DNA of 64,000 bases from Patescibacteria group bacterium (GCA_028688375.1 JAQTYG010000001.1:183420-247419), one strand, 5' to 3'. Shown: positions 36,549 to 59,602, numbered from the stretch's first letter. Notes: generated from the sequence alone by a model not told the origin. Program-made: numbers and translations.

Positions 36549-37016
36549 ATGGAGACCACGCACGCCCACACCAACTTGTGCGAATGCGGACTATGCTGTG
36601 AGGGCAACCCGCATGTCTACATCGAGCTCAAAAACAAAAAACAGCGCCATGGGCCATTCGAATCGGCCTTCGAGGCGCTGATATTCCTCTTCGGGCGAAC
36701 CGCCAGCAAGGTGGTCACCAAAGAGGAGACCGGAAAGGAGGTCCTGACCGCCGATCTGGACAAGAAAGAGGCGGTCGAGATCGGCCAGTGGATTCTGAAC
36801 ATCCTGCCCCACGGCCGGACCGACACCACCACCGCCGCCACCGAGCTCAAGCGCGAGCTCGAACGCCACCACAACGGACAGTCCGTCCGCCTGCTTGAAC
36901 TGGCGGACGCTATGTTCGCTCCCCTGTTGGAAGGGGAAAAGTCCTTTGATAAGCTCCCACCGCCCCGAGAGCGCGAGAAGCTCTCGCTACGATACGTCGT
37001 GGCTACCGGCGGTTGA
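36549..37016 (+). CDS. Hypothetical protein (155 aa) with N-terminal Cys cluster (CECGLCCEGNPH), GC-rich cassette gene 2
   Basis: ATG immediately after the gene 1 stop (the ORF track's longer 36483 start overlaps gene 1 and is less likely); followed by a terminator at 37040. Confidence 0.5.
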   Translation: METTHAHTNLCECGLCCEGNPHVYIELKNKKQRHGPFESAFEALIFLFGRTASKVVTKEETGKEVLTADLDKKEAVEIGQWILNILPHGRTDTTTAATELKRELERHHNGQSVRLLELADAMFAPLLEGEKSFDKLPPPREREKLSLRYVVATGG

Positions 37017-37039
37017 GCTTCCGACCCACCCGCACCCCC

Positions 37040-37077
37040 GGCCGTCCTGACACATGTTAGGACGGCCTTTCTCTTTT
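37040..37077 (+). terminator. Rho-independent terminator (GGCCGTCCT-loop-AGGACGGCC followed by TTTCTCTTTT)
   Basis: Read directly, 9 bp perfect stem plus a U-rich tract. Confidence 0.7.
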
Positions 37078-37086
37078 ATACACGGA

Positions 37087-37115
37087 TTGACTTTGGCCGA
37101 TTTTTACGCTATAAT
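37087..37115 (+). promoter_or_regulatory. Near-consensus sigma70 promoter TTGACT-17-TATAAT
   Basis: Read directly; no ORF follows, only a structured approximately 130 nt segment ending in a terminator. Confidence 0.6.
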
Positions 37116-37217
37116 TTTTTAGCTATTATAATCCGCCCGTTTAGGAACGGGCAACGAACATGGCCCGTTCGTCTATCAGTTAGGACACGGCCCTCTCAAG
37201 GCTGAAAGACGGGTGCG

Positions 37218-37236
37218 ATTCCCGTACGGGCTACAA
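37218..37236. repeat. 19 nt direct repeat ATTCCCGTACGGGCTACAA, copy 1 (tRNA-3'-end-like)
   Basis: Identical 19-mer recurs at 37449..37467. Confidence 0.6.
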
Positions 37237-37245
37237 AATTAAAAG

Positions 37246-37270
37246 GTCCAGCGCAAGCTGGGTTTTTTAA
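37246..37270 (+). terminator. Rho-independent terminator CCAGC-GCAA-GCTGG followed by GTTTTTTAATTTT
   Basis: Read directly (GNRA-like tetraloop hairpin plus U-tract). Confidence 0.65.
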
Positions 37271-37296
37271 TTTTGTAATTTGTCCAGGGAATCGCA

Positions 37297-37317
37297 CCTG
37301 CCTGCCGGCAGGCAGGC
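37297..37317. repeat. GC-rich palindromic repeat family D (CCTGCCTGCCGGCAGGCAGGC), left flank of the AT-rich defense island
   Basis: 20/21 identical to 42257..42277; core TGCCTGCCGGCAGGCA is a perfect palindrome. Confidence 0.55.
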
Positions 37318-37448
37318 GGGCAGGAGCGAGCAACGAAGTTTTTGCGGAAGCAAAAACGAGGAAGCGAGAGTCGGCGGACTTCCAGTGAAAGTCCGCCGCT
37401 GCCCAGGACAAGGAGCCGAGCCGATTGTGGTCGGCTCGGCGACGCGGA

Positions 37449-37467
37449 ATTCCCGTACGGGCTACAA
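37449..37467. repeat. 19 nt direct repeat ATTCCCGTACGGGCTACAA, copy 2
   Basis: Identical to 37218..37236; preceded by several GC hairpins (GGCGGACTT..AAGTCCGCC, GCCGAGCCGA..TCGGCTCGGC). Confidence 0.6.
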
Positions 37468-37544
37468 CTGGCTTTTTGCTGAGGTTCCAGTTCACCAGCA
37501 CACTTTTTGCCCACTCGCTTTTGGCGGGACGATTTCAAGTTTTT

Positions 37545-37925
37545 TTATTTTTTGACAACATTGTCCTTGTTAAACAAAAAACCCACTACTATCAATGCTA
37601 ACCCGATCGTTTTTAAAAAACTCTCTCCAACAAAAAATGGCACAATATAACCTTCGTTAAAGCTCATCCATTTAAATCCTACTGCCACTATAACAAAAAA
37701 ATCAAAAACAACAATTGAAATGATAACCCGTAATAACCAATCAGACCATGTCCTTCTCATGCCCATTATATCCAGTCTTTCGCGAGCCAAAATTTGCGCA
37801 ATTATTTTATCCTGCTCCAGCTGGCTCATTTTCCTTTGTGTTTCTAAATCAGGCCCAACAATATCGTAAGTCGTTTGTTCCTCCAATATCTTTTTGACTT
37901 CCTCAACTGTTACGCGATTTTCCAT
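37545..37925 (-). CDS. Small membrane protein (126 aa, soluble N-terminal domain plus 2 TM helices); holin-like or membrane anchor
   Basis: WLLRVIISIVVFDFFVIVAVGF and LKTIGLALIVVGFLF hydrophobic helices; overlaps the ImmA-like gene by 16 nt. Confidence 0.45.
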   Translation of the reverse strand: MENRVTVEEVKKILEEQTTYDIVGPDLETQRKMSQLEQDKIIAQILARERLDIMGMRRTWSDWLLRVIISIVVFDFFVIVAVGFKWMSFNEGYIVPFFVGESFLKTIGLALIVVGFLFNKDNVVKK

Positions 37926-38506
37926 AAATTCAGCTTCTTCATTCTGAAAGCCATCATTTCATTTGACACTCCGAACATTTTGGCCAGCAGATCAATATCA
38001 TCTTTTGTAATTTTGTATTTATTTATTATTTCTTCAGCCATGTTTTTAGGCACAAGAATATTAGCGGCAAAACAATTAGCCTCTTGCTCTACCGGGCTAT
38101 AATTTCCATTAATGATTGTTTGTCGCAATAACACATTGTAGTCGGAAGGCTTATGTTCCATTTTAAAGTGTCCCAACTCATGTGCTATAGTGAACATCTG
38201 ACGATTTGCTGGGTCGTCATTGTTAACAAAAATTATCTTCTTTTCAATATCTAAGAAACCAGCGACGGATTGAAGCTTCTCGGGCATTTTAATAAAACGC
38301 AATTCCAGCCCCTCGCCTTTGGCAATTTGAAAAACATTAACAACGGGTTCGGTTACACCATATTTTACCAACAAATCATTGGCTAATTCTTCACATTTTG
38401 GAAAATTTGCCTCGCCCATATAATAATGGTTAATTTTTACTTCTGCTGTTGGTAGTATAGCACAATAAAGAAATTTTGACGATTTTAAATTTTTCTTTAT
38501 GCACAA
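37910..38506 (-). CDS. ImmA/IrrE family zinc metallo-endopeptidase (DUF955)
   Basis: HEXXH motif FTIAHELGHFKMEH plus downstream EQEANCFAANILVP are typical of ImmA/IrrE; real start is probably the internal MGEANFP. Confidence 0.65.
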   Translation of the reverse strand: MCIKKNLKSSKFLYCAILPTAEVKINHYYMGEANFPKCEELANDLLVKYGVTEPVVNVFQIAKGEGLELRFIKMPEKLQSVAGFLDIEKKIIFVNNDDPANRQMFTIAHELGHFKMEHKPSDYNVLLRQTIINGNYSPVEQEANCFAANILVPKNMAEEIINKYKITKDDIDLLAKMFGVSNEMMAFRMKKLNLWKIA

Positions 38507-39289
38507 TCAAGTAAAATCTATAAATTTAGCCTGGTATTTATCCTTCCACTGACTTTTAGAGATAACCCTCTCAGAATAAACACCGGGAGGCGGCCAGTTC
38601 ACCTCCGAAATTTTAATACTACCATCTTGGTACACCTCTTCTACAAACGCAACATGACCTACTGCAGGATTTTTTAAACTTCCGACGAACGACATGGCAC
38701 AACCGGCCTTTGGTTCTTCCAGAATCCTGTACTGGGCACTTCTTTGAAAAATCCCTGCCCATAAGCCCCCATTACGCGGTCTTTCTGCTGGCCATTTGAT
38801 AGTGATGCCCATTTGCTGAATTTTATAATGAACATACTCTACGCACTGAAGATCGTCTCTTCGTGCTCCTCCACCAAACTCATCATTAATAATTTTGCGT
38901 AATTTTATGGAATTTGCATCAGTCGCGAGATTTTTTTCGTGATTATGAAAAGCTGGCACGACATCCTGAAATACTTCTTTTTTCTGCAAATTTTCCAATG
39001 CGATTGGAACGACTTCTACTAAATAAAATTTAGAAACCCAGCCGTTTTTCCCATCAGCATTGACCCTAAACCAGTCGCCATTTTCTTCAACAGCCTCAAC
39101 CTTAGTACTAAAAGCGAGTTTTGCGATAATATTATCGTTGTTAATCTTTTCCGGGCTGGAACGCATGCGTAACCCATCGGAAGCACTGACAAATAACTCT
39201 TTAGTGGAAAATTGTGGAGTTATATCTGCTACATTTGTTTTTTCTTCGAAGTCAAACGTTTGATTGCACTTAGGACAAGTTATCGGCAT
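38507..39289 (-). CDS. Zinc-ribbon - SH3-like - CHAP domain protein (putative peptidoglycan amidase/endopeptidase; endolysin-like, no signal peptide)
   Basis: N-terminal CPKCNQTF zinc ribbon; NGDWFRVNADGKNGWVSKFYL SH3b-like; C-terminal QCVEYVHYKI ... GHVAFVEEV consistent with CHAP Cys/His catalytic residues. Confidence 0.55.
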   Translation of the reverse strand: MPITCPKCNQTFDFEEKTNVADITPQFSTKELFVSASDGLRMRSSPEKINNDNIIAKLAFSTKVEAVEENGDWFRVNADGKNGWVSKFYLVEVVPIALENLQKKEVFQDVVPAFHNHEKNLATDANSIKLRKIINDEFGGGARRDDLQCVEYVHYKIQQMGITIKWPAERPRNGGLWAGIFQRSAQYRILEEPKAGCAMSFVGSLKNPAVGHVAFVEEVYQDGSIKISEVNWPPPGVYSERVISKSQWKDKYQAKFIDFT

Positions 39290-39335
39290 ATAATATTTTC
39301 GGGTTATTTATAATATCATTATACTAGAAAGAATC

Positions 39336-40427
39336 TTATTTTCCAGATTTGGTTCGATTATCTTGCTTACACAACATTTGGCAATTCTCGGCAACAGTTT
39401 TACCACCCTCGTGCCACGGCTTTATATGGTCGGCTTCCATTTCTTCTATTTCAAAACGCTTCTTGCATTTTTTACAAATTCCTTTTTGCCTCTCATACGC
39501 TTCGCGCTTCATTTTGTCCGTAAAAGCACGAATCGAAAGAAATTTTTCTTGTCCCGTTAAAACATACGGGTAAATACCGGATTTTTTTGTAACATCTTCA
39601 TCTTGCATTAACTCTTTGATCTCGGCTTCAAGTTTACCGGCGTTCAATTTCCTATCTTTGAATTGATTATACAGTTCACCCCATTGCACGCCACTCATTT
39701 CTCGGCGATAATTTGTAAAAATTTTACGCACCCACGCAATCACGTCTTGAAAATACTGCCACAATGCTTCCGCATCCTTTTTATTTTGATGTTTGGCCAT
39801 GTAATCTTCTATCTTGCCGTCGTTAATCCACGAAAGTGCTGTTTCTAAATACTCCTGGCGAATTGGCGAGCCGTTAACTAATTGCCCGCCGTCGTTCGCT
39901 AACAAATATGCCGCGCAATTTGATTTGCTGAATTTAAGTTTGGCGTCAGAGAGCCATGGCCCGGTATATACCGCGTTGCGTATTTCTTGGTCAGTCAATT
40001 TTTCACCGGCAATATTAATAATTCTAAACCAGTCCAGTCGTTCTTTGTCTGTACCCTCGCAGAAATATATCATCAGTTCATAATCCAAAATCTGTTTTTG
40101 TTCTTCGTTGGTCAAGTTGTGAAAAAAACGATCATTCAGCGAAAAATCGCCATTAATATATTGCCCGATACTAATGGTGCGCTGTTGGCCGTCCAAAACT
40201 TCGAAATTTCCTTGGTCGGTCTTGACCCAGTACATCACATTAAGCGGAAAGCTATTTTTAATCGTTTCAAGCACGGCATCCCGCTGTTTGCCGGTATAAA
40301 CAAATTCGCGCTGATATTTGGGGCGGATATCCAGCTTACCGCCATACGCGACCACGCCTTCTTCGGCGCTGTCTTTGTAACCAACGACCACTTTACGCAC
40401 CGAAATTTTATGTAATTCAATTTTCAT
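39336..40427 (-). CDS. DUF262 (ParB/GmrSD N-terminal-like) - HNH endonuclease fusion protein; candidate restriction/defense nuclease
   Basis: VLDGQQRT (DGQQR signature of DUF262); C-terminal CKKCKKRFEIEEMEADHIKPWHEGGKTVAENCQMLCKQDNRTK HNH motif. Confidence 0.7.
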   Translation of the reverse strand: MKIELHKISVRKVVVGYKDSAEEGVVAYGGKLDIRPKYQREFVYTGKQRDAVLETIKNSFPLNVMYWVKTDQGNFEVLDGQQRTISIGQYINGDFSLNDRFFHNLTNEEQKQILDYELMIYFCEGTDKERLDWFRIINIAGEKLTDQEIRNAVYTGPWLSDAKLKFSKSNCAAYLLANDGGQLVNGSPIRQEYLETALSWINDGKIEDYMAKHQNKKDAEALWQYFQDVIAWVRKIFTNYRREMSGVQWGELYNQFKDRKLNAGKLEAEIKELMQDEDVTKKSGIYPYVLTGQEKFLSIRAFTDKMKREAYERQKGICKKCKKRFEIEEMEADHIKPWHEGGKTVAENCQMLCKQDNRTKSGK

Positions 40428-40428
40428 A

Positions 40429-41382
40429 TTATTTTTTTACTTTCTTATTTTTAACTAAAATTCTAAAATATGTAAATTTCCCATTTATTGACAGGTCTTT
40501 ATCATCATCGCCCTTACGAAACTTCACAATTTCAAACTGGTCCGGATTATATTTATCAATAAAAGTTATCGGCACACCAATAACGCCGTTATAATCATAG
40601 GGAATATCCGTATATTTGTCTACGTTGATTGCATCATAATTATCATAATGTGGATATTCCTCGGGGTTGTATTTTTTATATAATGTTATAAATTCCTTAT
40701 GCTTTTCAACCTCAAGGCTTGTGAACCAACACGAAGTTGAAACTCGCGCGATTTTCTTACCGTTCTCATCAATATGGTGAAACAATTCCCAATCGTCTGG
40801 CACCATAAAGAACATACCGACGTTAAAATTGGTGTAACCTGTTCGAATTTTGTCTTCTTTGAATAACTTAAAAATTTCTTTATAAGTTATCGCATTGGTA
40901 TTGCCGATAATCAAAAACCTCTTATCGTACTCCATCAGCTGCGCCATATACTCACGAAATAGTGAAAATGGCGGGTTTGTTACTATGATGTCAGCTTGTT
41001 TGAGAAGGTCAATACATTCCTTGCTTCGGAAATCGCCGTCGCTTATCATTTCGGTCATAAATTCATCCGGGTCGGGCATGCGATTACCATTTTTATCCCC
41101 AGCGTATTCCAATTTATAAGGTTTTTTATTGGTAAATAAAGTTGCGCCTTTGAAATGGGTGGCAATCAATTTCTTCAATCCTAAATGTTCAAAATTTCTA
41201 CTGAAATATTTAACAAAGTTACTTTCTCTCGGGTCATCGCAATTACAAAATACCACCTTTCCTCGAAACTGATCTTTATAATGCTTGATTTCATTTTCAA
41301 TATCGGCAAGCTGGGTATAAAACTCGTCTTTCTTTTCTTTACTTGCCTTATGCAAACTTTTATTTGATGATTTAGTTACCAT
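40429..41382 (-). CDS. N6-adenine DNA methyltransferase of the M.EcoRI family
   Basis: KDEFYTQLADIENEIKHYKDQFRGKVVFCNCDDPRESNFVKYF and IIVTNPPFSLFREY (NPPF catalytic motif) closely parallel M.EcoRI-family methylases; 317 aa; 1 nt gap to the downstream gene and 2 nt to the upstream gene. Confidence 0.7.
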   Translation of the reverse strand: MVTKSSNKSLHKASKEKKDEFYTQLADIENEIKHYKDQFRGKVVFCNCDDPRESNFVKYFSRNFEHLGLKKLIATHFKGATLFTNKKPYKLEYAGDKNGNRMPDPDEFMTEMISDGDFRSKECIDLLKQADIIVTNPPFSLFREYMAQLMEYDKRFLIIGNTNAITYKEIFKLFKEDKIRTGYTNFNVGMFFMVPDDWELFHHIDENGKKIARVSTSCWFTSLEVEKHKEFITLYKKYNPEEYPHYDNYDAINVDKYTDIPYDYNGVIGVPITFIDKYNPDQFEIVKFRKGDDDKDLSINGKFTYFRILVKNKKVKK

Positions 41383-41384
41383 AA

Positions 41385-42134
41385 TTATCTTCTTGTTATC
41401 AAGTCATACGCCAAGCTGGCGAGTGATATATAATGAATTGCTAAATTTTTATCCAAATCTTGAGCGGGAGTATGCGCTTTTTCATTCCGCAAAAATTGGA
41501 TGGACATATGTAAAAATTTTACTCCCTCAAAAAAATCTTTTTCCGCGTCATTTTTCGGTTTCCGCCCAAAAATTATTTCTTGGTTCGATTCCGCAAACGC
41601 CTCGTGCGCTTTTTCTTTGCCGGTAATATCTCTGAGCTTTTGACGAACGATTTTATACGCTTCTTCTACGGCGTTAAAATAATGCCCACTATTCAGAAAT
41701 TTTTGAACATGGTCAAAAACTTCTTTTTGCAAAATTATATTGATATTACCGTTCTTAAAGGTGGCTTGGGATATATTTTCAACTTTCACTTTTACCCCAA
41801 GAAGTTTTTCGCCAATGTTTTTAGCGGCGGTCATTCTGTCGGCTGGAAAATCATCTCGTTTCAAATTATCCAATAAAATCTGATTTTCAATATATTCAAT
41901 GAGTTTCAAAATACTTTTTCCAACGATTTTATCGTCTGCGTTCGTCCATAGGCCACGGAGACGATTTGCTTTTGAACCGCTGGCATAATTGTACCTTTGA
42001 TTGTAAATATCAATGCCGATGTCATCTCTAAAAAATTCACCCATTGTTCGGTCGGAAAAATTCAAAACATAACCACTGCCCATCTGGAGTAGTTTTTCAA
42101 GTGTCTGTTTTTCGAGTGTAGTCAGTTCTGCCAT
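41385..42134 (-). CDS. HEPN domain protein (TIGR02391/Swt1-like, Rx4-6H motif); Abi-like RNase candidate
   Basis: C-terminal FLRNEKAHTP provides the HEPN R-x4-H motif; first gene of the three-gene operon; sigma70-like promoter (TTGCGA-16/17-TAGAAT) immediately upstream at about 42140..42175. Confidence 0.55.
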   Translation of the reverse strand: MAELTTLEKQTLEKLLQMGSGYVLNFSDRTMGEFFRDDIGIDIYNQRYNYASGSKANRLRGLWTNADDKIVGKSILKLIEYIENQILLDNLKRDDFPADRMTAAKNIGEKLLGVKVKVENISQATFKNGNINIILQKEVFDHVQKFLNSGHYFNAVEEAYKIVRQKLRDITGKEKAHEAFAESNQEIIFGRKPKNDAEKDFFEGVKFLHMSIQFLRNEKAHTPAQDLDKNLAIHYISLASLAYDLITRR

Positions 42135-42139
42135 AATCT

Positions 42140-42480
42140 TATTCTATTCTATACTTATTAGAAAGATTCGCAATATATTTCTGGATTCCCGCCAGAGTTT
42201 ATCCTCGCGAAAGCGGGGGCGGGAATGACAGGGCTTCGCCGCGACCTCACCCCAGCCCTGCCTACCGGCAGGCAGGCCTCTCCTTATCAAGGAGAGGGGC
42301 GCCGGAGGGATTCCTCCACTACGGTCGGAATGACAGGACTTCCCCTCGCCCCCTCTTTATATAAGAGGGGGAAAGATCCTTCGCTTCGCTCAGGATGACA
42401 AGTGGCGGGAATGACAGGGTGACGAGAAGATCCTTCTCTCCGCTCAGGGTGACACCGCAAATTGCGGTGTCACTTTCTCT
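42140..42480. repeat. Repeat-dense intergenic region: at least five REP-like elements (families A, B, D plus the CTCTCCTTATCAAGGAGAGG hairpin and the GTGACACCGC-AAATT-GCGGTGTCAC hairpin)
   Basis: Family A at 42180..42232, D at 42257..42277, B-type at 42371..42400 and 42424..42454, perfect 10 bp hairpin at 42451..42473. Confidence 0.6.
42257..42277. repeat. GC-rich palindromic repeat family D (CCTGCCTACCGGCAGGCAGGC), right flank of the defense island
   Basis: 20/21 identical to 37297..37317. Confidence 0.55.
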
Positions 42481-43762
42481 CCCACTCCCCCGTCTGCCTG
42501 ACTAAAAGTTCAGACGCGCGGAGCGGTTCGGCCATTAATTCTTTGACGATTTTTTCCATCCGTACACCCTGCGAGCCTTTGATTAAAACTACATCGCCTT
42601 CTTTGATGGCGTCTTGTAAAAATTTCCCGGCGCTGGCACTGTCGGCAAAAGTCACCACGCGGTGTTCTTCCATCCCAGCCTCGCGCGCCGCTTGGGCCGT
42701 TTGTTTGGACGCCTCCCCCACCGTCACCAAGACATCAACCCCCAATTCCGCCACGCGCCGGCCGATATCACGATGGGCGCTTTCCGTTTCCAAACCCAGC
42801 TCCAGCATATCGCCGAGCACGGCGTAACGTTCGGCGTCGGCCTTGATGTCAATATTTTTAAGCGTCTTCAGCGCCGAGATGGTCGGTTCGGGCGAAGAAT
42901 TATAGCTGTCATCAATCAGCATGGTTTTTTTAATGCCCGGAATCAAACACATATGCCCGGCCAATGGTTTCAAATCGCGCAACGCGCCGGCCGCTTCCAC
43001 AAAATTCACGCCGAAAATATGGCCGATGGCCAGACCGGCCAAAGCCGCCGGAATCAAATGTTCGGCCATGGCGCCGGGTAAAAATACCGGCACGATGTTG
43101 CCCCGAAAATTAACCTTGAAATTCAAACCGGTCGGCCAGTTGGTCTCCGGGTCGGGAATAATATTGACATCAGTCGCCTGAAAATCCGCACCGTCTTTAA
43201 AACCGAAAGTGACCACCTCGGCTTTAGTTTTGGCGTTTTGCATCACCAGGTCATTGTCATAATTCAGCACGGCAAAACCTTCTTCGGTCAGATGAGAAAC
43301 AATGACACGCTTCTCCTGAATAATTTTTTTGAGGGTTTTAAAAAATTCTATATGCACCGGCGCGATGTAGGTCAACACGCCGACTTTACACGGCGCGGTC
43401 TCCACCAAATATTGAATGTCGCCCGGCTTATCCGAGCCCATTTCCAACACTAAAATTTCCGGATAATTTTCCGTTTTCCCGCCAATTAATTTTAACGCCC
43501 GGCCAAAAACTTTCAACCAACCGAAAATCGACCGGCCCGGAGTTTTATCAACACCGATAACGGTCAAGGGCAAGCCGATTTCGTTATTATAATTTTTAAC
43601 ATTGGCGCGAACGTTGAAACGCGTCCGCAGCACCGCCACCGCCGCTTCTTTGGTGGAAGTTTTGCCGATGGAACCGGTGATGCCGACAACATCGGGGCGA
43701 TATTTTTTTAAAATCGCCTTTGCTAATAATTTTAGGATGAGTTGGAGAAGGGATTTTAACAT
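42470..43762 (-). CDS. murF: UDP-N-acetylmuramoyl-tripeptide--D-alanyl-D-alanine ligase
   Basis: DVVGITGSIGKTSTKE P-loop, Mur ligase middle/C-terminal conservation; 430 aa. Confidence 0.8.
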   Translation of the reverse strand: MLKSLLQLILKLLAKAILKKYRPDVVGITGSIGKTSTKEAAVAVLRTRFNVRANVKNYNNEIGLPLTVIGVDKTPGRSIFGWLKVFGRALKLIGGKTENYPEILVLEMGSDKPGDIQYLVETAPCKVGVLTYIAPVHIEFFKTLKKIIQEKRVIVSHLTEEGFAVLNYDNDLVMQNAKTKAEVVTFGFKDGADFQATDVNIIPDPETNWPTGLNFKVNFRGNIVPVFLPGAMAEHLIPAALAGLAIGHIFGVNFVEAAGALRDLKPLAGHMCLIPGIKKTMLIDDSYNSSPEPTISALKTLKNIDIKADAERYAVLGDMLELGLETESAHRDIGRRVAELGVDVLVTVGEASKQTAQAAREAGMEEHRVVTFADSASAGKFLQDAIKEGDVVLIKGSQGVRMEKIVKELMAEPLRASELLVRQTGEWERK

Positions 43763-46624: not shown

Positions 46625-46636
46625 GATAAATAGTGT

Positions 46637-46664
46637 CTGGATTCCCGCCTGCGCGGGAATGACA
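46637..46664. repeat. REP-like hairpin family A: CTGGATTCCCGCCTGCGCGGGAATGACA
   Basis: Stem ATTCCCGC/GCGGGAAT; intergenic between the P-type ATPase and rlmN. Confidence 0.65.
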
Positions 46665-46675
46665 AGGTGAAAAAA

Positions 46676-49247: not shown

Positions 49248-51491
49248 TTACTTTTCTGGATTCCCGCCTTCGCGGGAATGACAAATATGTACATTTTTTT
49301 TAACGAGGCTCTCCGTGTCCAAACCAGCTTGACCGTAGACTTCCGTCGCTCGGCCGGATTTAAGAAAATGATCCACGCCGATGAGGCGGTTCTGATAACC
49401 GGCCGGTTGGATAAACTCGCGGGTAAATTCATTCCAGCCGTTGTGCAGAGCGATAACAGTGGCCCTTTCTTCATCGGATAAAATGGCTTGCGCTTTTTTC
49501 GGATCGGTTTTTTCCAGTTCCACAAATAATTCCGGCGAAGTGACGACAACGATTTTTACGTCCAATTTTTGTTTGGCTAAATCGGGCAGGGCTAGTAAAA
49601 CATTTTGCAGAAGCGTGGCGCCACAAACCGCCAGCGCGATTTTTTTGCCGGCGCCGGTGTATTCTTTATAGATGTAAGCGCCATCGCAGGCGGATGAGGC
49701 CGGCGTATTTTTTCTGTCTAACACCGGAGTCTCCGAACGGGACAGGGCCAAAACAATCGGCTCGCCTTTCTCCAAAGCGAAAAACAGCATCTCAATTACT
49801 TCATTGGCATCGGTCGGCTTGTAAACTTTTATCCCGGGATAAGCGTCAAACAAAGACATCCAATACATGCCCTGGTGGGTCGGGCCGTCTTCGCCTGTTT
49901 CCGGGCCGTCATGTGTGGCCAGAGCGATAAAAAAGCCCTGTGTAGCCGGATTGGCGGCATTGGCCACCAGCGCCAAATGCACGGCGTGACCATACATAGC
50001 GGTAAAAACGCCGTAAGTGCCGAACACTGATACCGGCCGGAAACCGCCGGGTAAAACATCCTGCGTCAAGGCCATAGACATCATGGCCATATTTTGTTCA
50101 GCGATGCCAAAACGAATGCCCCGGCCGAACTTATTTTGCGCGTTGATGATGCCATAAACATGCTCCGACTGGCCGAGCAAAACCGATTTGCTCAAATCCC
50201 CCGCTCCGGCGTAAAAAAACGCGGTCTGCTCCATCAACCATTTGCACCAGAGCTCGGAGGCCTGGCGCATGCTAATTTTGTCGCCGGGCTTGAAGGCAAG
50301 TTCGGGCGGGAGGTTTTTCGGACGCTTGATGCCACGCGGATTTATCAGCGGACGATTGGGCAAAGTTTTTTTCATCCGCGCTATCAGTTCAGATTCCGGT
50401 TCAATTTTGTCCGCGCCTTTTTCCAATTGCCAATCAATAAACGAAGCATCGTCTTCAGTCAACGCGTCCAAAATCTTTTGAATATCACGGGCGACATTTC
50501 CCTTTTCTCCGGGCGCGCTAAAACCAAGCTGTTTCAAAATTTTTACATAATCTTCATGGTCGGTCGGCGAACCATGCGAGGCAGTGGTGTTTTCTTTGGC
50601 GCCGTATTCTTTGCCTTTGATAGTGTGGGCGATAATTGCTGTCGGCCGGCTGTTGTCAAAACCTTGGCGGGCGATGGCGTAGGCGTAAAGAAGTTCGTTG
50701 ACATTGTGGCCATTTGCTTCAATCACATTCCAACCAAAACCGAGCCAATAATTCAAATACGGCGCGCTCATGGCTTCTTCAATCGGGCCGTCAATACCAA
50801 AATGATTGTAATCAAGTGAGACGATAATATTGTCGGTGGCGGTGGCGACCAAAACATTGCGCGCTTCAAAAGTCATGCCCTCTTCGCTCTCGGCATCGCC
50901 CATCATCACCCAAACTTTGGTCGGCAGACCGCAACTGGCGTGCGCGATAGCCATACCGCCGGCGGCGGAAAAACCATGGCCGGACGGACCGGTGCAATAG
51001 TCGGCATAGGGATATTGGCTTTCGGCATGACCGGGCGGACCGTCCAAACGGCGGAATTGCGACAAGTGTTCGGGCAGAACGCAATTAACCACGGCTTCAG
51101 AAAATTGGCGACCGGCTCGGCGCATGGCTTCATAGTATAGCGCCTGTCCGCCGTACAAAAGCGGGGTGCAGTGGCCGGCGCTCCAAATCAACCGGTCTCG
51201 GCCGGGATGTTTGGGGTCGGCCGGATCAAAGGCCAGCGAACCGCCCAGGGTAAGCGCTAAAAATTGTTCCACTTTGGAGCTACTGCCCCCGGGATGGCCG
51301 GACCGGGCGCCTTCCACGGTGGCAAAAATAAGGCCACGGAGAATTTTGGCCAGACGGTCTAAACGAGAAATGTCTAGGCCGTTATATGGCTCCAATTCAG
51401 CGTCTTGCAATTTAATATATGTAGCGCCGTCGTTTTTTCCGTTTACTGTCAATTTTTTCAGGTCTTTGGCAACAAGGGGGTTAAGGGGCAT
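49248..51491 (-). CDS. tkt: Transketolase (full length, with an approximately 60 aa N-terminal extension)
   Basis: GHPGGS ThDP motif, GDG..EG block, FGIAEQNMAMM pyrimidine-binding region; 747 aa. Confidence 0.8.
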   Translation of the reverse strand: MPLNPLVAKDLKKLTVNGKNDGATYIKLQDAELEPYNGLDISRLDRLAKILRGLIFATVEGARSGHPGGSSSKVEQFLALTLGGSLAFDPADPKHPGRDRLIWSAGHCTPLLYGGQALYYEAMRRAGRQFSEAVVNCVLPEHLSQFRRLDGPPGHAESQYPYADYCTGPSGHGFSAAGGMAIAHASCGLPTKVWVMMGDAESEEGMTFEARNVLVATATDNIIVSLDYNHFGIDGPIEEAMSAPYLNYWLGFGWNVIEANGHNVNELLYAYAIARQGFDNSRPTAIIAHTIKGKEYGAKENTTASHGSPTDHEDYVKILKQLGFSAPGEKGNVARDIQKILDALTEDDASFIDWQLEKGADKIEPESELIARMKKTLPNRPLINPRGIKRPKNLPPELAFKPGDKISMRQASELWCKWLMEQTAFFYAGAGDLSKSVLLGQSEHVYGIINAQNKFGRGIRFGIAEQNMAMMSMALTQDVLPGGFRPVSVFGTYGVFTAMYGHAVHLALVANAANPATQGFFIALATHDGPETGEDGPTHQGMYWMSLFDAYPGIKVYKPTDANEVIEMLFFALEKGEPIVLALSRSETPVLDRKNTPASSACDGAYIYKEYTGAGKKIALAVCGATLLQNVLLALPDLAKQKLDVKIVVVTSPELFVELEKTDPKKAQAILSDEERATVIALHNGWNEFTREFIQPAGYQNRLIGVDHFLKSGRATEVYGQAGLDTESLVKKNVHICHSREGGNPEK
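49256..49283. repeat. REP-like hairpin family A: CTGGATTCCCGCCTTCGCGGGAATGACA
   Basis: Between the tkt stop and the ATPase start; preceded by an 8 bp GC hairpin ACCCCCGA..TCGGGGGT. Confidence 0.65.
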
Positions 51492-58743: not shown

Positions 58744-58752
58744 TTTTAATAA

Positions 58753-58780
58753 CTGGATTCCCGCCTTCGCGGGAATGACA
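58753..58780. repeat. REP-like hairpin family A: CTGGATTCCCGCCTTCGCGGGAATGACA, overlapping the start codon of the next gene
   Basis: The ATGACA of the repeat supplies the ATG at 58775. Confidence 0.65.
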
Positions 58781-59602
58781 ATGATTATGTTATCCGCGCG
58801 AGCTGAAAAAGTTATCCGCGATTATTTCAACCTTCCTTTTGAGGGTTTGACTGGCGTGCGCTGTCCTTATTTTAACAACGCCCGGCGCAATCGGCGCGGA
58901 CAACTGCGCGGGCTGATCGGTAAAGGCACACCGGAAGAAATCGCGGAGGAGGCGCGAATCATTTCCACTCAATATCGCCATAATATTTTTGATAAAGATG
59001 GCCACTGCTGTGTGCACGCGACGCATAATGACGAAGAAAAAATTGAAGACGTGAGAAAATTTTTGATTGATAATGATCTGGGAATTGATTGTTCCGGATT
59101 TGTCAGCCATGTCCTGATTGAACATTACAAAGAAACCAGGGGCGTGGATATCGCCCGCCGGTTTCACTTTTGGCCGATAAAAAATTTCTGGCGCTGGCTG
59201 GTGGCGCGTTTGCGTCCGGTGGAAAACATGTCGGTCCGCGTAATGGCTAAGGACGCTAACACTAACAAGATCGCCGATGGGCGAAGCGGTTTTGATTGGT
59301 CGCGCTTAGAATCGGCGGATTTAGTGATCATGATGGAAACCGGACCGAACAAAAAAAGAAACCACGTGTTGCTGATTGAAGACAACGAGGGCTCGGTGAT
59401 TAGATACACGCACGCCCGCGCCTGGTCGGCTGAAGGCAAATACGGACATGGGGTGGCGCGCGGAGAGATCCGTCTAACCAAACCGGGCGGTAATTTGTTG
59501 GAACAAGCCTGGGAAGAACTGGGCCGAGCCGGAGAAGATAATGAAACATTTTTAGAAGCAACAGGGGCTAAACTGTTGGAAGTAAGACGGATAAGAATAT
59601 AG
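58775..59602 (+). CDS. Hypothetical protein with NlpC/P60-like papain-fold cysteine peptidase motif
   Basis: GIDCSGFVSHVL resembles the NlpC/P60 catalytic Cys block; a downstream His (NHVLLI) is present. Weak. Confidence 0.35.
   Translation: MTMIMLSARAEKVIRDYFNLPFEGLTGVRCPYFNNARRNRRGQLRGLIGKGTPEEIAEEARIISTQYRHNIFDKDGHCCVHATHNDEEKIEDVRKFLIDNDLGIDCSGFVSHVLIEHYKETRGVDIARRFHFWPIKNFWRWLVARLRPVENMSVRVMAKDANTNKIADGRSGFDWSRLESADLVIMMETGPNKKRNHVLLIEDNEGSVIRYTHARAWSAEGKYGHGVARGEIRLTKPGGNLLEQAWEELGRAGEDNETFLEATGAKLLEVRRIRI

Follow-up and report, generated by a model that had tools for sequence, protein, structure and literature searches.

Why does the 3′ end of a tRNA gene recur, without a single change, a short distance downstream of the gene itself? 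The question is raised by a 64-kb stretch of DNA from a Patescibacteria group bacterium (called the window here; coordinates count from its first letter). A 19-mer, ATTCCCGTACGGGCTACAA, is found at 37218-37236 and exactly again at 37449-37467, with a start-to-start distance of 231 bp, as an earlier note on this DNA had observed. Both copies lie on the plus strand, and so do the features described below unless stated otherwise. The earlier note considered a small RNA, a degraded tRNA or tmRNA-like gene, and an integration site with a duplicated attachment (att) sequence. We lean, with a confidence somewhat better than even, towards a promoter-driven tRNA-Glu(CUC) gene followed by one conserved, structured and putatively non-coding RNA module, which resembles in design the RtT RNA of Escherichia coli.

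An intact tRNA-Glu gene and its repeated 3′ end

ARAGORN and Rfam scans, which the earlier note had proposed, both identify tRNA-Glu. The gene is intact, has the anticodon CUC, carries no encoded CCA and is located at 37162-37233/4. ARAGORN reports the anticodon as CTC, and the tRNA model RF00005 gives 50.9 bits, with its threshold at 29. These two results rule out a degraded tRNA or tmRNA; ARAGORN also finds no tmRNA, and Rfam gives no tmRNA hit at the locus. The supposed non-coding unit of about 130 nt without an open reading frame (ORF) is really a leader plus the complete tRNA-Glu(CUC). The idea of a small RNA is reasonable for the spacer between the two 19-mers. A sigma-70-type promoter, TTGACT-17-TATAAT, is present at 37087-37115 as had been described, matching 11 of 12 consensus positions in the scanner. 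A TTGACT...TAtAAT promoter is also found upstream of tRNA-Glu in L001, L002, L033, L034, L084 and L086 (L-numbers denote loci of relatives, of which L081-L090 were added by a metagenome pattern scan).

The first 19-mer comprises the 3′ part of the T-loop, the 3′ strand of the T-stem, the 3′ strand of the acceptor, the discriminator A and CAA; ARAGORN and RF00005 bear out that this 3′ end is tRNA-derived. No further copy is found in the window at three or fewer mismatches, and 100 shuffles gave none. A dispersed repeat of the repetitive extragenic palindromic (REP) type, an alternative which the earlier note had itself raised, is rejected, since the 64 kb contain no more than these two copies and the REP-like families of the window differ in sequence. 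The downstream copy reproduces the CAA trailer of the gene and not the mature CCA end. It is therefore derived from DNA, and a retroelement primer-binding site is rejected.

The canonical U54-U55-C56 of the T-loop and G18-G19 of the D-loop are not found in this tRNA, which has TGCGATT (G55) as its T-loop and ATCAGTTA as its D-loop. Genes identical to it are present in L001, L002 and L011. The T-loop UGCGAUU, with G at the near-universal U55, is found in a clade including the window, L001, L002, L011, L016, L019, L025, L039, L042, L081 and L086, and the same clade carries CAG or UAG in the D-loop where relatives have the usual GG. As both changes always occur together, a compensated change in the tertiary contact between D-loop and T-loop is suggested. 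Being common to a clade of relatives, the combination of G55 and altered D-loop looks like a tolerated variant rather than decay.

A structured module downstream of the tRNA

The spacer between the two 19-mers (212 bp) is GC-rich and structured. The module, present as a single unit in the window, occupies 37278-37467 (about 180 nt), directly downstream of the tRNA on the same strand. It starts with a linker, AATTTGTCC (37278-37286), which by eye fits a loosely conserved T(C/T)TG(T/A)C motif of the relatives. The following anti-T-loop GGGAATCGCAC (37287-37297) is the reverse complement of tRNA positions 53-63 and provides the 5′ strand of a predicted closing helix, P1. Here 37287-37295 pairs with GCG at 37444-37446 and ATTCCC at 37449-37454, which joins the reverse-complement copy of T-loop and T-stem (GGGAATCGC) and the direct copy (GCG..ATTCCC). 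Inside, helix P2 (37318-37404; GGGCAG at 37318-37323 with CTGCCC at 37399-37404) encloses the hairpins P2a with a GGAA loop (37339-37356) and P2b (37372-37398), all three according to the model R1 and the alignment A8 described below. Alignment A8 further places a single-stranded joiner, AGGACAAGGA (37405-37414), conserved as (A/C)GGACAA in 7/8 type 1 modules, and hairpin P3, GCCGAGCCGA-TTGTGG-TCGGCTCGGC (37415-37440). The module ends with GACGCGGA and the second 19-mer (37441-37467), which contain the two pieces of the P1 3′ strand, and the last part, GTACGGGCTACAA (37455-37467), is an unpaired tRNA-like tail with the same sequence as the tRNA acceptor 3′ strand plus discriminator. Since the second 19-mer supplies both a P1 3′ strand and the tail, the 19-nt direct repeat is integral to the module.

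Two further pairings were considered. Wobble pairing of the linker with ACGGG in the acceptor 3′ strand is conceivable; it holds in about 6 of 16 modules and partially in about 5. Such an acceptor-like stem, T(C/T)TGT with ACGGG, is unsupported in L073, the sole module with a different acceptor, and is therefore left tentative. A D-stem-like pairing GTCC/GGAC is present only in the window and L086 and was rejected.

Between tRNA and module lies a terminator-like hairpin (37232-37277) with A/T-rich extended arms (37232-37252 and 37257-37277), the core CCAGC-GCAA-GCTGG at 37248-37261 and a six-T run (U-run) at 37263-37268. An intrinsic terminator had been placed here by the earlier note, together with an 11-nt inverted repeat bridging it. 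Both are present, the inverted repeat as GTGCGATTCCC / GGGAATCGCAC with 17-nt arms of 88% complementarity at 37207-37223 and 37287-37303. The terminator scanner makes its call on the minus strand only; by reading of the sequence the hairpin is bidirectional. All related loci have a hairpin in this place, its sequence varying from locus to locus. A single long imperfect palindrome spans T-arm, terminator and anti-T-loop.

Distribution among relatives

We looked 160-260 bp downstream of each tRNA-Glu for a sequence that directly repeats its own 3′ end. Such a copy is found in the window, L001, L002, L033 (two copies), L034, L054 and L073. The arrangement is observed next to tRNA-Glu(CUC) or tRNA-Glu(UUC) in L001, L002, L033 (two modules), L034, L054, L073, L081, L084, L086, L089 and L090. 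The 3′ copy matches the local tRNA in most of them, including L073 with its different acceptor, and that of L084 does not. The layout is common to these loci: tRNA-Glu, a long hairpin starting from the tRNA trailer, a short linker, the reverse complement of the local T-loop and T-stem (GGGAATCG[C/A]AC), two to three GC-rich hairpins with purine-rich linkers, and finally the 3′-end copy. The inverted piece tracks the local T-loop, as seen in the pairs TGCGATT/AATCGCA, TTCGATT/AATCGAA and TTCGACT/AGTCGAA.

The closest relative, L001, contains the exact 19-mer twice and has no island. It is 80.6% identical to window positions 37157-37467 overall and 90% identical over 37317-37467. The adjacent genes for a Mur ligase and a penicillin-binding protein are only about 71% identical at the DNA level, and the flanks of the module are unrelated. 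The module is thus conserved independently of its surroundings.

Two structural types are distinguished. Type 1 comprises the modules of the window, L001, L002, L086, L089, L090, L073 and L033-B, and type 2 those of L034, L054, L033-A, L081-L085, L087 and L088. Tandem or partial extra units are present in L002, L033, L081, L087 and L090. In L011 and L013 nothing but the 5′ start of the module is left, and L016 and L019 have none. Orphan modules in L082, L083, L085, L087 and L088 keep a tRNA-Glu-like tail and have no upstream tRNA even at a permissive threshold, while 3′ fragments mismatching the resident tRNA are found in L084, L051, L060 and L077. The genes flanking the modules of L084 and L090 are housekeeping genes (rplJ, tsaD, tsaE) with no recombinases. 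No module-like sequence is found in the viral contigs, phage records and plasmid records searched, and our literature search returned nothing on such modules in Patescibacteria. At L091 (2370-2540) two inverted tRNA-Glu 3′ halves surround an AT-rich palindrome within a larger perfect palindrome; this structure is possibly no true module but a foldback artefact of the assembly.

Covariation and strand

Covariance model R1 was built from three close type 1 copies, with the 20-nt palindrome insertion of the window removed. A search of 1.38 Mb at E ≤ 1e-6 retrieved 8 type 1 copies, each directly after tRNA-Glu, and no further copy in the 64-kb window. In the alignment of these 8 copies (A8), 92.7% of the cells are paired, versus 71.3% in shuffles and 32-47% when the partners are slid by 1-3 columns. 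Changes on both sides are observed in 28/43 pairs, and 0/500 shuffles reached any of the five measures. In the closing helix, helices 1 and 2 are 93.8% and 70.8% paired. P2 is 100% paired with four of its six pairs covarying, and its variants in relatives are GAGCAG/CTGCTC, GGGTCG/CGACCC and GGGTGC/GCACCC. Pairs changed on both sides amount to 6/7 in P2a, 10/11 in P2b and 7/10 in P3. For the type 2 modules, which were aligned with MAFFT alone, 14 of the 23 predicted pairs are kept through double changes. The type 2 model (R2) detects type 1 modules with E-values from 5e-6 to 6e-4.

Folding energy is lower on the plus strand in 14/17 modules, and the stems contain 23 G·T versus 5 A·C. The plus-strand loops are GGAA, GACA, GCAA and GTAA, classed as GNRA type, and the linkers are purine-rich. 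The tRNA (plus) strand is thus favoured by the G·U pairs, the GNRA loops and the folding energy. For the minus strand, both an RNA and a tRNA-like fold are rejected, as no T-arm pairing is found there and the G·U bias is opposite.

Proposed mechanism and points against it

We propose that the module would be transcribed by read-through from the tRNA promoter. The fold would form once the second 19-mer is transcribed and pairs with the anti-T-loop. The 3′ end would then be set at the tRNA-like end by tRNA 3′-processing, presumably RNase Z cleavage and CCA addition in this CCA-less lineage. This proposal is made by analogy, because the annotated 3′ end of E. coli RttR coincides with a tRNA-like 19-mer. 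The number of units may be altered by recombination between the repeated tRNA 3′ ends. As substrates for unequal recombination, these ends would explain the tandem, truncated and orphan copies.

Several points weigh against this explanation. The weakest link is the terminator-like hairpin. A U-run hairpin stands between tRNA and module and no separate promoter is evident, so the predicted transcription is not assured. The covariation alignment consists of only 8 sequences, which were fitted to the model, and the excess of G·T could partly stem from purine-rich composition. In L033-A the anti-T-loop fits the tRNA better than the 3′ copy of its own module, a pattern which could reflect palindrome correction at the DNA level and not RNA pairing. 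The window module itself carries the 20-nt palindrome insertion and has no hairpin after the tail, unlike most relatives. To be added are the searches with known models. The Rfam RtT model (45-bit cut-off) gives no hit at E ≤ 10 on 36950-37650 and none on the other modules of these candidate phyla radiation (CPR) genomes at E ≤ 0.1 to 5, and R2 gives no in-register match to E. coli RtT (8.9 bits, misaligned).

Leader, palindromes and gene neighbourhood

A leader hairpin, GCCCGT-TTAGGA-ACGGGC, is seen in the sequence at 37135-37152 between promoter and tRNA. The promoter-tRNA leader of about 45 nt is not present in L001 according to the alignment. Leader positions 37143-37158 (AGGAACGGGCAACGAA) resemble module positions 37322-37337 (AGGAGCGAGCAACGAA) at 14/16; this could be a remnant of a further upstream unit, or chance.

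The insertion in the window module (37298-37317, strand unspecified) is a 20-nt stretch missing from L001 and L086 in the alignment. The perfect palindrome CCTGCCTGCC/GGCAGGCAGG at 37297-37316 is a separate dispersed palindromic element. This palindrome, CCTGCCTGCCGGCAGGCAGG, is dispersed in Patescibacteria loci (L012, L052, L056, L062, L065, L074, L076, L084), and a variant is located at window positions 42258-42277. It was inserted independently in the window module and, at another site, in that of L084, apparently without destroying the fold.

A low-GC block (37545-42134, 36-39% GC) begins about 80 bp after the second 19-mer, outside both repeats. This island encodes a 126-aa ORF, an M78 peptidase, a CHAP/SH3 protein, a GmrSD_N-HNH protein, an EcoRI-type adenine methylase and a Hypoth_Ymh protein; no endonuclease is identified. 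In its place L001 and L002 have an AMMECR1 gene, accompanied by Memo in L002; no AMMECR1 homologue is found in the window. Beyond the island and a GC-rich hairpin cluster (42180-42470) follows a Mur ligase gene on the minus strand (42470-43762), whose closest relatives are in Candidatus Magasanikbacteria and other Patescibacteria, with a best amino-acid identity of 78%. We assign the genome of the window to Candidatus Magasanikbacteria. In most relatives tRNA-Glu(CUC) adjoins the Mur ligase gene, pointing either way and separated from it by about 50 bp to 3.4 kb. Compared with these, the gap of 5.2 kb in the window is an expansion of a conserved junction. In both L011 and L012 the tRNA-Glu lies 74 bp from the Mur ligase gene, on opposite strands. 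Both tRNA orientations occur among L001-L080. This implies that small inversions ending at the tRNA have happened repeatedly. Exact-protein look-ups of the flanking genes returned no record.

Pfam scans of the neighbouring window ORFs reveal no integrase, whether within the island or to the left or right of the tRNA, and similar scans around the L084 and L090 modules reveal no recombinase or TnpB. A REP-like hairpin family, CTGGATTCCCGCC-TTCG-CGGGAATGACAA, is found at 42180-42235, 46636-46665, 49255-49284 and 58752-58781, and GGAATGACAGG occurs three times within 42220-42420. This family is unrelated to the 19-mer save for the 8-mer GATTCCCG. Farther away and not connected to the module, about 26 consecutive minus-strand ORFs with 34-44% GC occupy 546-28511.

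Alternative explanations

It is unlikely, yet deserves weighing, that the module is a small non-autonomous mobile or selfish DNA unit which targets the 3′ part of tRNA-Glu. A unit of 210-231 bp (tRNA 3′ end, terminator and core) would enter at the T-loop and bring a replacement 3′ end that leaves the tRNA intact. Arrays would arise by repeated insertion or unequal recombination, and the hairpins would serve as DNA or as element RNA for a recombinase provided in trans. Such a unit is consistent with the patchy presence among close relatives (5′ start only or nothing in L011, L013, L016 and L019), with the tandem and partial extra units, with the 3′ copies mismatching the resident tRNA, with the differing left or right flanks of the orphans L082, L083 and L085, and with its location beside both tRNA-Glu isoacceptors in different gene neighbourhoods. 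However, no integrase, transposase or TnpB adjoins any copy examined, and the viral contigs, phage records and plasmid records gave no hits. Module similarity tracks host relatedness, with L001 the closest in both. There is only one copy per 64-kb window, and across 1.38 Mb all copies but the orphans lie at a tRNA-Glu. The G·U bias supports a function as RNA. We consider it very improbable that the 19-mers are attL and attR of a tyrosine-integrase element in tRNA-Glu, whether this element is the low-GC island or one since deleted to 212 bp. The stretch from the T-loop to just past the 3′ end is the classic identity block of tRNA-targeting integrases, and the repeat spans it. The accessory island starts close to the second copy, and an AMMECR1 gene found at this place in L001 and L002 is missing. 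Nevertheless, the 19-mers flank only 212 bp while the island lies outside, the locus has no integrase, and repeat and spacer are present without the island in L001, L002 and L086. The island idea, and with it the att scar of the earlier note, fails for these reasons. A third att copy at the right edge of the island was looked for; only the 8-mer GATTCCCG is found there, at 42184, as part of the separate REP-like hairpin family. The spacer is moreover conserved and covarying, so it is not a decaying scar, which would not covary.

A neutral by-product of replication is also rather improbable. Template switching at the terminator hairpin would produce an inverted and then a direct copy, around which GC-rich palindromes accumulate without any RNA function. 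The long imperfect palindrome of T-arm, terminator and anti-T-loop fits such a process. The anti-T-loop follows changes of the T-loop, as quasi-palindrome correction predicts, and dispersed palindromic elements of these genomes do insert into the module. On the other hand, interior helices and single-stranded motifs persist from genus to genus, accompanied by compensatory changes, module identity is 90% where genes are about 71% identical at the DNA level, and the same design is found in E. coli RtT, an annotated small RNA.

Comparison with known systems

Integrase-driven islands flanked by attL and attR, and their integrase-less derivatives of the cis-mobilizable element (CIME) type, share with this locus the direct repetition of tRNA 3′ sequence starting at the T-loop, an upstream copy that completes a functional tRNA, and an island nearby. 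They differ in that no integrase is found at the loci examined, the repeats are separated by only about 190-210 bp of conserved and covarying sequence, and the island lies outside. The tRNA-like domain of tmRNA and MALAT1/mascRNA are similar in another respect. A non-tRNA RNA ends there in tRNA-derived T-stem and acceptor sequence, and such a 3′ end could attract enzymes of tRNA end processing. The module, in contrast, lacks a complete T-arm as well as a well-supported acceptor 5′ strand, and tRNA-like Rfam families give only chance-level hits that fall on the tRNA itself. No known Rfam family is found for the module at permissive thresholds in the window and six other loci. The GAGGAAAGTCC of type 2 modules was considered as an RNase P P4 region and has no Rfam support. 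A guide of the omega-RNA or bridge-RNA style (IS200/IS605, PATE-type) was also rejected, as neither tnpB/tnpA nor an IS110 recombinase is found beside the modules and the window has a single copy.

Work on E. coli RtT, or RttR, goes back decades, and the role of this RNA has yet to be settled. Repeats of 178 bp that contain the last 19 nt of the tRNA follow the tyrT operon. We checked this on NC_000913, where the 19-mer AATCCTTCCCCCACCACCA, the tRNA-Tyr 3′ end starting in the T-loop, occurs in 6 copies: in tyrT, in the spacer, in tyrV, and three times downstream of tyrV at a 178-bp period. RttR, an annotated small RNA of 171 nt, starts 7 nt after tyrV and ends exactly with one 19-mer copy. In the Rfam RtT consensus (RF00391), a closing helix pairs an inverted tRNA 3′ copy (GgGaaGGAU) with a direct copy (AUCCuuCcC), and the interior consists of a helix around two hairpins, a purine-rich joiner and a free tail. 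A possible role of RttR in the stringent response has been described, with its mode of action called unknown (bioRxiv 10.1101/2024.07.17.603846).

The two systems differ in several respects. The tRNA is tRNA-Tyr in E. coli and tRNA-Glu here, and the phyla are very distant. A terminator-like hairpin between tRNA and module is present in the CPR loci and not in E. coli. The window tRNA has no encoded CCA. The inverted copy covers T-loop and T-stem here, whereas in E. coli it covers the T-stem and the beginning of the acceptor strand. The CPR modules have two structural types, no tpr-like ORF is evident, and the window unit is single. As the covariance models are negative in both directions, homology to RtT rests on the architecture and one short purine-rich motif. 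The element is therefore filed as RtT-like in design and not as a member of RF00391, since the RtT model and R2 fail to cross-detect. RtT-like modules are present in the CPR, and the Rfam RtT model misses these copies.

The likeness itself is extensive. In both E. coli and the window the unit lies directly downstream of a tRNA on the same strand and ends by repeating the terminal 19 nt of that tRNA exactly, from within the T-loop on (19/19 in both systems). Unit lengths are 178 bp in E. coli and 210-231 bp in the CPR loci, where tandem units are also possible (L002, L033, L087, L090). A closing helix is formed by inverted and direct tRNA-derived copies with a free acceptor-strand tail, and the type 1 topology has a helix enclosing two hairpins followed by a purine-rich joiner. 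The motif GGAGCGAAGCGA(CGAAT) is found in the equivalent position, just before the tRNA-derived copy. Compared with the tyrT-tyrV spacer unit, GAGGAGCGAAGCGACGAAT matches 19/19 in L088, and the match extends over 16 nt in L081 and 12 nt in L034. The 12-mer GGAGCGAAGCGA occurs only 4 times in the 1.39 Mb of fetched loci, every time in a module at that position.

A wider suggestion, which we put forward tentatively and with more doubt than belief, is that RtT represents an old and widespread class of structured RNAs on the 3′ ends of tRNA genes. Such RNAs would use the tRNA T-stem and acceptor for closing the fold and for maturation, and may act in tRNA homeostasis or starvation signalling. If this is true, the shared GGAGCGAAGCGA motif would mark a site whose function is common to these RNAs. 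The present modules warn annotators that a duplicated tRNA 3′ end by an accessory island need not be an att site. They also make the function of an RtT-like class more testable. The CPR set gives covariation support for a defined fold and separates its constants, namely the tRNA-derived closing helix, the free acceptor-strand tail and the purine-rich joiner motif, from its variable parts. A second, independently evolving RtT-like set on another tRNA in a distant, genome-reduced lineage would mean that the design seen in E. coli is selected and is no local accident.

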